10,180 nucleotides of DNA, from UHGV virus genome UHGV-1550197; one strand, given 5' to 3'. Position 1 is the stretch's first letter; the number at the start of each line of letters is the position of its first letter. The position numbers and the translations under genes are program-made. This DNA is from a virus. The notes beneath the pieces were generated by a model. That model was not told the origin of the DNA and ran no database searches. It saw only the letters and a list, made by a program, of their open reading frames with translations. Positions 1,133-10,180 of this stretch are shown here, piece after piece.

Positions 1133-1162
1133 AAAATAAAAAAGGACTCCCGAAGGAGTCCT
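1133..1162 (-). terminator. rho-independent terminator (minus strand)
   Basis: Minus-strand RNA: stem GGACUCC / GGAGUCC (1155-1161 / 1144-1150), UUCG tetraloop (1151-1154), then UUUUUUAUUUU (1133-1143). Starts 5 nt after the stop of the 58-aa ORF. Confidence 0.8.
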
Positions 1163-1166
1163 CAAC

Positions 1167-3990: not shown

Positions 3991-4223
3991 AGTACGCCAT
4001 ACACCCTTTGTGCTTCAACTAATCCATCAAAATCTAGTTTAAGATGCGATATTTGATCGCCATCACCTGGATTCACAATTACTAATACTGAACGAGGAGT
4101 TTCAGTAATAACACGAACCGATGTTTCAGGAAATCGTTCAGAAACTTTATTTACTAATTCCTGTGCAAATAGTTTAACTTTTTCTTGGAATTCTTTAGCA
4201 GTAATTGGTTTTTCACTTAGCAT
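3987..4223 (-). CDS. hypothetical protein (78 aa)
   Basis: ATG 4221-4223; its stop overlaps the start of the downstream ORF (ATGA at 3987-3990). Product not recognised. Confidence 0.6.
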   Translation of the reverse strand: MLSEKPITAKEFQEKVKLFAQELVNKVSERFPETSVRVITETPRSVLVIVNPGDGDQISHLKLDFDGLVEAQRVYGVL

Positions 4224-4744
4224 GTTGATCCCAGCTCCTTACTTTCAACGTTTTTAACTAATTTGACAGAAACTAATTCAGCATCTTGAGTAATCATTAC
4301 CGGACCTTCTTCATACTCTTCAAGATATTCTAGAGCTTTCTTTTTAGCTTCTTCCTTCGTATCAGTTTGAGCATAGATATAAAACATACAACCAGTAATA
4401 CCTACTACTTTCCACTTAATTTCTTTATCAGTTTTAATTTCAAATTTACTGACGGAATCATCTTTTTGAACTTCTTCGAAAAAAGAATATTCTAACATAT
4501 AAGCAATTGAAAATAGCGGGCTAACTTTATAGGATTCACCCATTACATCAACAGCTTTATACCAACAATCATCAATTTCACGTTTAATGCTAATAACATT
4601 TTTCGCAGGATCTATTTTTACTTTAAATGAATTTTCCCCAATAAACTGGGCAATTCGTTTATTAGCCCCGCAAGTTTCATTAAAAATATCTTTATATCCA
4701 GCTTTAAAGCGATAAACCTTATCTTCTTCAAACCATTCGCTCAT
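4217..4744 (-). CDS. hypothetical protein (175 aa), acidic C-terminal half
   Basis: ATG 4742-4744 with GAGGA 7 nt upstream; it has its own candidate promoter in the 62-nt gap upstream. Product not recognised. Confidence 0.7.
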   Translation of the reverse strand: MSEWFEEDKVYRFKAGYKDIFNETCGANKRIAQFIGENSFKVKIDPAKNVISIKREIDDCWYKAVDVMGESYKVSPLFSIAYMLEYSFFEEVQKDDSVSKFEIKTDKEIKWKVVGITGCMFYIYAQTDTKEEAKKKALEYLEEYEEGPVMITQDAELVSVKLVKNVESKELGSTC

Positions 4745-5475: not shown

Positions 5476-6675
<1,200 letters not shown>

Positions 6676-6679
<4 letters not shown>

Positions 6680-8110: not shown

Positions 8111-9698
<1,588 letters not shown>

Positions 9699-9728
9699 AA
9701 TAAAATGGGCCTTGCGGCCCACTCCTTA
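9699..9728 (-). promoter_or_regulatory. GNRA-tetraloop hairpin between the nrdB stop and the denA start: terminator-like and/or split ribosome-binding site
   Basis: Minus strand: UAA-GGAG-U-GGGCC-GCAA-GGCCC-AUUUUAUU-AUG. AAGGAG lies 5' of the hairpin and the denA AUG 8 nt 3' of it; with the hairpin folded the effective SD-AUG spacing is about 9 nt. Confidence 0.45.
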
Positions 9729-10132
9729 AAAGTATTTTTTAAAACTCATCATAACTTTATCATCAACATCATTATCAATCTGTGCAACAAGGTAAGATGA
9801 CAATTCTACTTCTTGTGGCGCAGATTGAACATTATCAGAATTAAGATATTCACGAATCCAAGGATATGGATGTTTAACCGGAGCATCGGTAATTGGGCAT
9901 GGAAGACCACACTGCTTCATACGAGATACAGTTAAGTAATCAATAAAGCTCCACATGCTATTTGTATTTAATCCAGGAACATCTCCATCTTTAAATAAAT
10001 GAACTGCCCAATCTTTTTCTTGGCGGTTAACTTCCATGAAAATATCAACTGCTTCTTGTTCACACTCTTGAGCAATTTTAACCCATTCATCGCCATCAGT
10101 ACCGGATTGAAGCTGACGAATAATATATTGGG
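9726..10132 (-). CDS. nrdB: ribonucleotide reductase small subunit, C-terminal part only (5' end cut off by the adapter / contig end)
   Basis: Open minus-strand frame from the adapter junction to the stop at 9726-9728 (...AQYIIRQLQSGTDGDEWVKIAQECEQEAVDIFMEVNRQEKDW...SFKKYF). Assigned mainly by T4 synteny (nrdB-denA-rnlA) and an acidic C-terminal tail; I do not recall the T4 NrdB sequence well enough for a direct match. Confidence 0.65.
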
Positions 10133-10180
10133 CTGTCTCTTATACACATCTCCGAGCCCACGAGACGTAGAGGAATCTCG
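10133..10180. other. Illumina Nextera (Tn5 mosaic-end) adapter read-through: sequencing artefact, not phage sequence
   Basis: Exact string CTGTCTCTTATACACATCT-CCGAGCCCACGAGAC, then the 8-nt index GTAGAGGA, then ATCTCG (start of the P7 flow-cell sequence ATCTCGTATGCC...). Confidence 0.95.

Follow-up and report, generated by a model that had tools for sequence, protein, structure and literature searches.

The window, i.e., the whole stretch of 10,180 nucleotides analyzed here (UHGV virus genome UHGV-1550197), is a fragment of a Tequatrovirus (T4-like) genome with its genes on the minus strand, as judged from megablast matches and gene order. The succession nrdB (3' end), denA, rnlA, alc, pseT, and cd is that of T4, for which denA is dispensable in the laboratory. 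Escherichia phage vB_Eco_BCPEco_001 matches bases 9250–10130 at 100% identity, and hundreds of T4-type records do so at 97–99% (megablast); roughly 720 GenBank junctions were brought up by this search. The product of denA, endonuclease II (EndoII), matches PDB entry 2WSH with E = 6e-88 and contains a GIY-YIG domain (Pfam match).

The upstream limit of nrdB in the window is an adapter junction. Bases 10133–10180, where the gene is cut off, are sequencing adapter rather than phage DNA: bases 10133–10166 match the Nextera transposase adapter (CTGTCTCTTATACACATCTCCGAGCCCACGAGAC) exactly over 34 nt, and next comes GTAGAGGAATCTCG, which resembles an i7 index plus the start of P7. Two minus-strand ORFs, 4217–4744 (175 aa, between cd.2 and cd.3) and 6377–6679 (100 aa, between pseT and pseT.1), have no T4 counterpart at these positions; the former has zero Pfam matches, and the only Pfam match of the latter, to a GapR-like family, is below threshold (E = 0.0099, 15.9 bits).

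Anatomy and folding of the nrdB–denA junction

The junction between nrdB and denA is base-for-base identical to that of T4 (NC_000866) and reads UAA-GGAG-U-[GGGCC-GCAA-GGCCC]-A-UUUUAUU-AUG on the minus strand (Table 1), exactly as laid out in an earlier note made from the letters of the window. That note placed AAGGAG 23 nt from the AUG of denA, saw no Shine–Dalgarno sequence (SD) at normal spacing before this codon, and expected that folding of the intervening hairpin would bring the two to about 9 nt from each other. These distances are borne out by the sequence, with 9 nt remaining if the 14-nt core is taken out and 7 nt remaining if the pair U9721–A9706 is counted as well.

Table 1. Features of the nrdB–denA junction, in coordinates of the window
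Feature	Position	Strand	Basis or remark
nrdB, 3' part, ribonucleotide reductase small subunit	9726..10132	-	annotation of matching phage records
nrdB stop codon TAA	9728-9726	-	sequence read
SD element UAAGGAG	9722..9728	-	overlaps nrdB stop; complementary to 16S rRNA 3' end
AAGGAG	9727-9722	-	sequence read
Hairpin U-GGGCC-GCAA-GGCCC-A	9706..9721	-	five G-C pairs, one U-A pair, GNRA tetraloop
Stem arm GGGCC	9720-9716	-	
Loop GCAA	9715-9712	-	
Stem arm GGCCC	9711-9707	-	
Extra pair U-A	9721, 9706	-	
In-frame GTG	9720..9722	-	denA start in T4 RefSeq annotation (NC_000866.4); judged not to be the start
Hairpin-to-ATG segment ATTTTATT	9706-9699	-	sequence read
U-rich spacer UUUUAUU	9699..9705	-	without SD; terminator-like U tract in T4-type phages
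denA, endonuclease II, GIY-YIG, 136 aa	9288..9698	-	ATG at 9698-9696

The spacer UUUUAUU contains no SD, and the one other SD-like 4-mer, AAGG, lies inside the hairpin, where the GCAA loop is followed by GG, at a distance of 11 nt from the ATG. This AAGG is engaged in pairing (P(unpaired) of the GG is 0.00), and it is missing from relatives with a UUCG loop. The record of Phage 132 (MZ417521) places the ribosome binding site (RBS) at an AGG buried in the denA hairpin. The gap from TAA to ATG in the window is 27 nt, i.e., stop and start codons do not overlap as they do in ATGA or TAATG. A search of the whole window against Rfam at gathering thresholds yielded zero matches.

The calculated free energy of the core hairpin is −11.6 kcal/mol, and that of the 66-nt region is −18 kcal/mol, compared with −9.35 ± 2.5 kcal/mol in dinucleotide shuffles (z = −3.4, 0/200). 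In naked RNA, weak G-U and A-U pairs (GGAGU/AUUUU) can lengthen the stem and thereby mask the SD: the minimum-energy fold pairs GGAG as well as the UG of AUG, with an outer helix, CUUUUA/UGAAAG, reaching the AUG, and GGAG is mostly paired (P(unpaired) 0.01–0.3). The SD:anti-SD duplex is worth −8.5 to −8.7 kcal/mol. With the core hairpin kept, freeing the SD costs 4.5–5.7 kcal/mol, and freeing the SD, spacer, and start codon together costs 7.6–8.6 kcal/mol, whereas melting everything from −29 to +12 costs 19–22 kcal/mol; hence, an initiation complex with the hairpin folded is a much cheaper route. In such calculations, the weak masking of the SD points to an RBS of modest rather than high strength, and pairing of GGAG in naked RNA could also dampen initiation at denA.

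Conservation among T4-like phages and the start codon of denA

The comparison set comes from two scans of IMG/VR, one with DenA and the other with an alignment of DenA proteins, and comprises 39 loci whose DenA proteins are 60–99% identical. Five remote loci (L043–L047, ~40% identity) were left out; these IMG/VR contigs (37–152 kb; about positions 1201–1215 of the loci) encode a distant DenA-like GIY-YIG protein without nrdB upstream and with an in-frame TAG in the matched region, and the phages may read TAG as sense.

The 39 loci contain 25 distinct nrdB–denA junctions, which are related by descent, so that counts taken over them are not counts of independent events. The earlier note had pointed to such junctions as a check on its reading, and a hairpin is indeed kept at the same position in 24 of the 25 types. 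Its sequence varies considerably: stems include GGGCC, GGGAC, GGGGC, GGGAGAC, AGGGC, GAGGGC, and others, and while most junctions have a UUCG loop, the T4 type has GCAA or GUAA, and single lineages have UUUG, UUAG, or CUUGA. The second pair from the loop is G-C (17), C-G (6), or A-U (3), the fifth is G-C (16) or A-U (9), and the sixth occurs as four Watson–Crick types. In a MAFFT alignment (A2), 93.8% of the cells of the six-pair helix are paired, and both sides have changed in 16 cells; the covariation score in this alignment is 0.352, compared with 0.140 ± 0.027 after shuffling (0/500) and at most 0.18 in slid-partner controls. RNAalifold independently gives the same helix. These comparisons clearly point to selection on the hairpin structure rather than to chance.

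The surroundings of the hairpin are conserved as well. Nearly all of the 24 hairpin-bearing junction types have UAAGG(A/U/C) or UAAAGGA 0–3 nt 5' of the stem; in L033 and L034, only a degraded SD, UAAGAG/GAGG, is left, which lies partly within the stem. The spacer between stem and ATG is A/U-rich, 5–10 nt long (mostly 7–9), and free of an SD in 24/24 of these types, while the distance from stop codon to ATG is 24–32 nt, mostly 26–28. Between the 3' end of the SD and the AUG there are 20–27 nt in the relatives, of which 7–9 nt (13 in L016) remain after subtraction of the hairpin, as computed by script wherever this was computable; hand counts from UAAGG give 7–11 nt.

The one junction type without a hairpin belongs to Yersinia phage fHe-Yen9-01 (NC_055716; L029), in which the stop codon of nrdB and the start codon of denA overlap (cttATGA, positions 1190–1204 of L029). 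Its relatives TG1 and phiR1-RT retain denA, and TG1 (L025) retains the hairpin. Hence, the hairpin module is dispensable, and plain termination–reinitiation can serve denA, which keeps explanations based on translational coupling in play. The 3' end of nrdB in fHe-Yen9-01 resembles that of VR5-like phages, unlike that of its relatives among the Yersinia phages, and the sequences suggest a joint created by recombination precisely at the ATG of denA.

The RefSeq record of T4 (NC_000866.4) annotates denA at 137517..137951 (435 nt, 144 aa), which corresponds to 9288–9722 (minus strand) of the window, i.e., to a start at GTG rather than at ATG. Were this annotation correct, the hairpin would be mere coding sequence for the peptide VGRKAHFI, which we consider very improbable; initiation at the GTG had been named in the earlier note as evidence that would refute its reading. 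In its favor, the GTG is in frame with the ATG (ORF 9288..9722, 144 aa), the frame between them is open, and the end of nrdB in T4 lies only 3 nt before the GTG, an arrangement that would suit reinitiation. However, the GTG overlaps the SD, leaving zero spacing, and it lacks conservation: only the T4-type, L011-type, and L041 junctions, i.e., just three lineages, offer an upstream start in frame, and elsewhere frame and spacing differ (24, 26, 28, or 32 nt). The eight codons evolve as a compensating stem, not as a peptide. Other phage records give the 136-aa form with an ATG start, the conserved N-terminus of DenA starts with MK(E/D)IA, and in the crystallized EndoII construct (PDB 2WSH), the His tag is placed directly on MKEIATEY, the sequence of the ATG start. 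We conclude that the start codon of denA is the ATG and that the RefSeq GTG start is an annotation artefact.

Transcription across the hairpin

The earlier note had also likened the hairpin to an intrinsic terminator. For T4-type phages, this is plausible: there, the hairpin followed by UUUUAUU has a terminator d-score of +24.7 with a tail score of 3.94 (the formula is reportedly that of d'Aubenton-Carafa, from 1990), and record NC_054919 labels the denA hairpin a putative terminator. Beyond them, it is not: roughly half of the lineages have a poor U tract or none, roughly half of the related lineages have d-scores below zero, and in L033 and L034 there is no U tract (GUAAAGCU). A simple terminator scan of the window did not list the denA hairpin, an omission that, we infer, results from the scan extending the stem into the U tract.

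The 430 nt of nrdB sequence preceding denA are free of sigma-70-like, T4 early, MotA-dependent, and late promoter motifs. Hence, denA transcripts must cross the hairpin, and termination there can be only partial or leaky. A similar structure is the mobE hairpin of the same operon, which terminates 30–50% of transcripts (PMC2790892). Like the T4 intercistronic C(UUCG)G/GNRA hairpins of the mobE type, that of denA has a G+C stem and, in T4-type phages, a U tract, and it belongs to the same unit, nrdA-mobE-nrdB-denA. Unlike them, it has a stem of 5–6 bp (compared with 9 bp in the mobE terminator) and a U tract that is unconserved across lineages; moreover, the AUG of denA is 7 nt from the hairpin with the SD on the far side, whereas ordinary T4 hairpins have the SD downstream. 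The latter is the case for the other strong hairpins situated 2–13 nt before T4 starts (wac→13, the stp/ac region, and frd.3→frd.2). A 2022 omics study of T4 lists denA RNA as "middle" and nrdB RNA as "early", classes that are too coarse for conclusions about termination, and a literature search for maps of T4 terminators or 3' ends returned nothing relevant. Partial termination or 3' protection of the nrdB mRNA is a plausible extra role of the hairpin in T4-type phages, rather than its conserved feature.

Several other transcription-related motifs were observed in the window. Between the denA stop and the rnlA start, positions 9262–9287 (minus strand) contain a MotA-box core and a −10-like motif (TGCTTCCACATGGAGTGTGGTACTAT), a candidate middle promoter for rnlA judging by sequence, and an early-type promoter motif (8107–8078) precedes alc. 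Two further G+C tetraloop hairpins with U tracts, at 1142–1163 (minus strand; GAGGACUCC-UUCG-GGAGUCCUU followed by UUUUAUUUU) and at 262–285 (AAUAAGGGGC-UUCA-GCCCCUUAUU, in plus-strand letters), are located among the small genes of the 30.x cluster; they are terminator-like and have no start codon adjacent.

A putative hairpin-bridged ribosome binding site

In T4, hairpins shorten the distance between SD and AUG from 22 to 5 nt at gene 38 and from 27 to 11 nt at gene 25; mutations that destabilize the hairpins reduce initiation at these genes, and the "split" arrangement at gene 25 has been confirmed by reporter and DMS data (PMC3014915; for the 26–25 junction see Nivinskas 1999; Malys and Nivinskas 2009, as cited there). 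This review does not mention denA. We defined a split RBS as one in which the SD is located more than about 15 nt from the start and removal of a stable hairpin brings it to about 5–11 nt. The linear distances at denA, in the window as well as in the relatives, exceed this limit, and the effective spacing of 7–9 nt is to be compared with 5 nt at gene 38 and 11 nt at gene 25.

The 37–38 junction, the first described example of a hairpin-bridged SD, reads UAAGGAGAG-GGGC-UUCG-GCCC-UUCUAAAU-AUG and has the same build as that of denA: a UAA stop overlapping the SD (UAAGGAG), a short G+C stable-tetraloop hairpin directly after it, an A/U-rich, SD-free spacer of 6–8 nt, and a linear SD–AUG distance of 22 nt (23 nt at denA). 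It differs in its weaker stem (four G-C pairs together with G-U and A-U, closed by UUCG; core −6.3 vs. −11.6 kcal/mol at denA) and in belonging to a late structural-gene operon; furthermore, its effect on translation has been shown by mutation, whereas such an effect at denA is predicted. At gene 25, GAGG-C-[CUCAAAG-AGUU-CUUUGAG]-UUACUAUA-AUG, a distant SD (GAGG) is likewise brought close to the start by an intervening hairpin, and the arrangement is conserved among close T-even phages. Here, however, an A/U-rich hairpin whose stem comprises 7 bp lies within the end of gene 26 and has no terminator-like features, and it is the start codon that the upstream stop codon overlaps, whereas the nrdB stop overlaps the SD.

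A scan of both strands of the T4 genome for an SD 4-mer, 0–3 nt, a hairpin (ΔG ≤ −5), 3–10 nt free of SD, and an ATG followed by an open frame of at least 35 codons produced five matches, of which three are the gene starts of 38, 25, and denA, and two are ATGs internal to 37 and nrdC.6. A covariance model built from denA junctions only scores the denA site of T4 at 58 bits, and its best non-self match in T4, with 30.5 bits and E about 0.006, is the 37–38 junction; the two matches examined after it (T4 ~55.4 kb and 5.4 kb) are hairpins without an adjacent gene start. The anatomy of the denA junction, its compensatory conservation, its energetics, and its match to the validated sites of genes 38 and 25 are thus established.

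We conclude, with moderate confidence, that the element is probably a hairpin-bridged ("split" or "accommodated") RBS for denA, analogous in build to the 37–38 junction. The gene without a promoter of its own would be read from nrdB transcripts crossing the hairpin; a 30S subunit would pair with UAAGGAG overlapping the nrdB stop, while the 16-nt G+C tetraloop hairpin would stay folded and loop out. The AUG 23 nt downstream would thereby be brought to ~7–9 nt from the SD, a functional spacing, and translation would start at the ATG, yielding EndoII of 136 aa, and not at the GTG. Both the use of the upstream SD and the persistence of the hairpin in the initiation complex are, we infer, features of this site. 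In T4-type phages, the hairpin with its U tract would probably have a secondary role, ending or stabilizing a fraction of the nrdB transcripts, and this proposed role could explain why the hairpin is present at this place and why the RBS straddles it.

Both the split-site reading and the analogy with gene 38 had been put forward in the earlier note, and the comparative and anatomical evidence lends them strong support. Its further suggestion, that the structure gates or holds down the synthesis of EndoII, finds no support; the validated hairpins of genes 38 and 25 enhance initiation (PMC3014915). In the searchable literature, papers on denA in connection with SD, hairpin, or coupling contain no discussion of the denA RBS, and the split site apparently has not been reported so far.

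If confirmed, this would be the third hairpin-bridged RBS of T4, with the most stable hairpin of the three. It is conserved in T4-like phages of Escherichia, Shigella, Salmonella, Yersinia, and Klebsiella, i.e., more widely than the gene 25 site, which is described for close T-even phages only (PMC3014915). It gives concrete grounds for moving the start of denA in the T4 reference record from the GTG of the 144-aa form to the ATG of the 136-aa form, and at junctions of this kind, automatic annotators misplace both starts and RBSs. With a stop codon, an SD, a terminator-like hairpin, and a start codon in 33 nt, it is a compact natural part that is useful in studies of how the 30S subunit accommodates structure between SD and AUG and in operon design. 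The understanding of T4 biology would remain unchanged.

Several other explanations have to be weighed against the hairpin-bridged RBS. The hairpin might serve nrdB only, as a leaky terminator and/or a 3' stabilizer protecting against exonucleases, with denA translated by ribosomes that reinitiate past the nrdB stop or from a weak SD-independent start on its A/U-rich leader; we regard this as rather unlikely. It would agree with the stem, U tract, and high d-score of the T4 type, with the label in NC_054919, with the partial termination at the mobE hairpin, and with fHe-Yen9-01, where the hairpin is absent and an ATGA overlap is present; many T4 genes in the window have a weak SD or none at normal spacing, so that denA might skip the upstream SD, and the difference between the RNA classes of denA (middle) and nrdB (early) points in the same direction. 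On the other hand, the hairpin, its position, and UAAGG persist in the lineages with negative d-scores, and in the absence of a denA promoter motif, termination cannot be efficient. The GG(A) after the stop and the fixed distance to the ATG argue against a terminator or stabilizer alone, because neither would need them, and just about half of the minimum-energy folds show pairing between the SD region and the spacer.

The same pairing underlies an inhibitory explanation, namely, that the extended helix hides both SD and AUG and that EndoII is made only once a ribosome finishing nrdB melts it, so that coupling would act by unmasking. The minimum-energy fold and the low accessibility of GGAG fit such a mechanism, as does the location of the nrdB stop 5–6 nt before the stem, which, judging by the size of the ribosome footprint, a terminating ribosome must open. 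We nevertheless consider it distinctly unlikely, since the masking G-U and A-U pairs are worth less than the SD:anti-SD duplex and are missing from about half of the related junctions. Moreover, the known inhibitory structures of T4, at e, soc, 49, and I-TevI, have the SD or AUG enclosed in their main helix (PMC3014915), whereas the core helix at denA contains neither. There is also hardly any reason to view GGAG as a site at which the endoribonuclease RegB inactivates denA mRNA early in infection, even though RegB does cut GGAG in intergenic SDs of early T4 mRNAs (PMC3014915): in most relatives, the motif is GGAU, GGAA, GGAC, or GGU instead of GGAG, and the combination of RegB and S1 needs 11 single-stranded nucleotides, GGAGRAYARAA (PMC1702504), whereas at denA, GGAG is followed by UGGGCCG in a stable stem. 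Judged by the published 11-nt consensus, a RegB site at this position is unlikely.

An unlikely alternative to an ordinary RBS is a hand-off device, in which the SD within the nrdB stop (UAAGG) would hold the finishing ribosome through SD:anti-SD pairing and the melted hairpin, on refolding behind this ribosome, would deliver the AUG 23 nt away to the P site; if so, the synthesis of EndoII would be tied stoichiometrically to that of NrdB. A more remote variant, restricted to T4-type phages, is that read-through or a hop like that in gene 60 could produce a little NrdB–DenA fusion protein. At 9699–9731 (minus strand) of the T4-type junction, nrdB and denA share a frame, with no stop codon between UAA and ATG, a shared frame that the relatives do not keep. 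UUU codons stand immediately before the nrdB stop and immediately after the hairpin, superficially like the bypass signals of gene 60, and this likeness is probably due to chance in a U-rich sequence.
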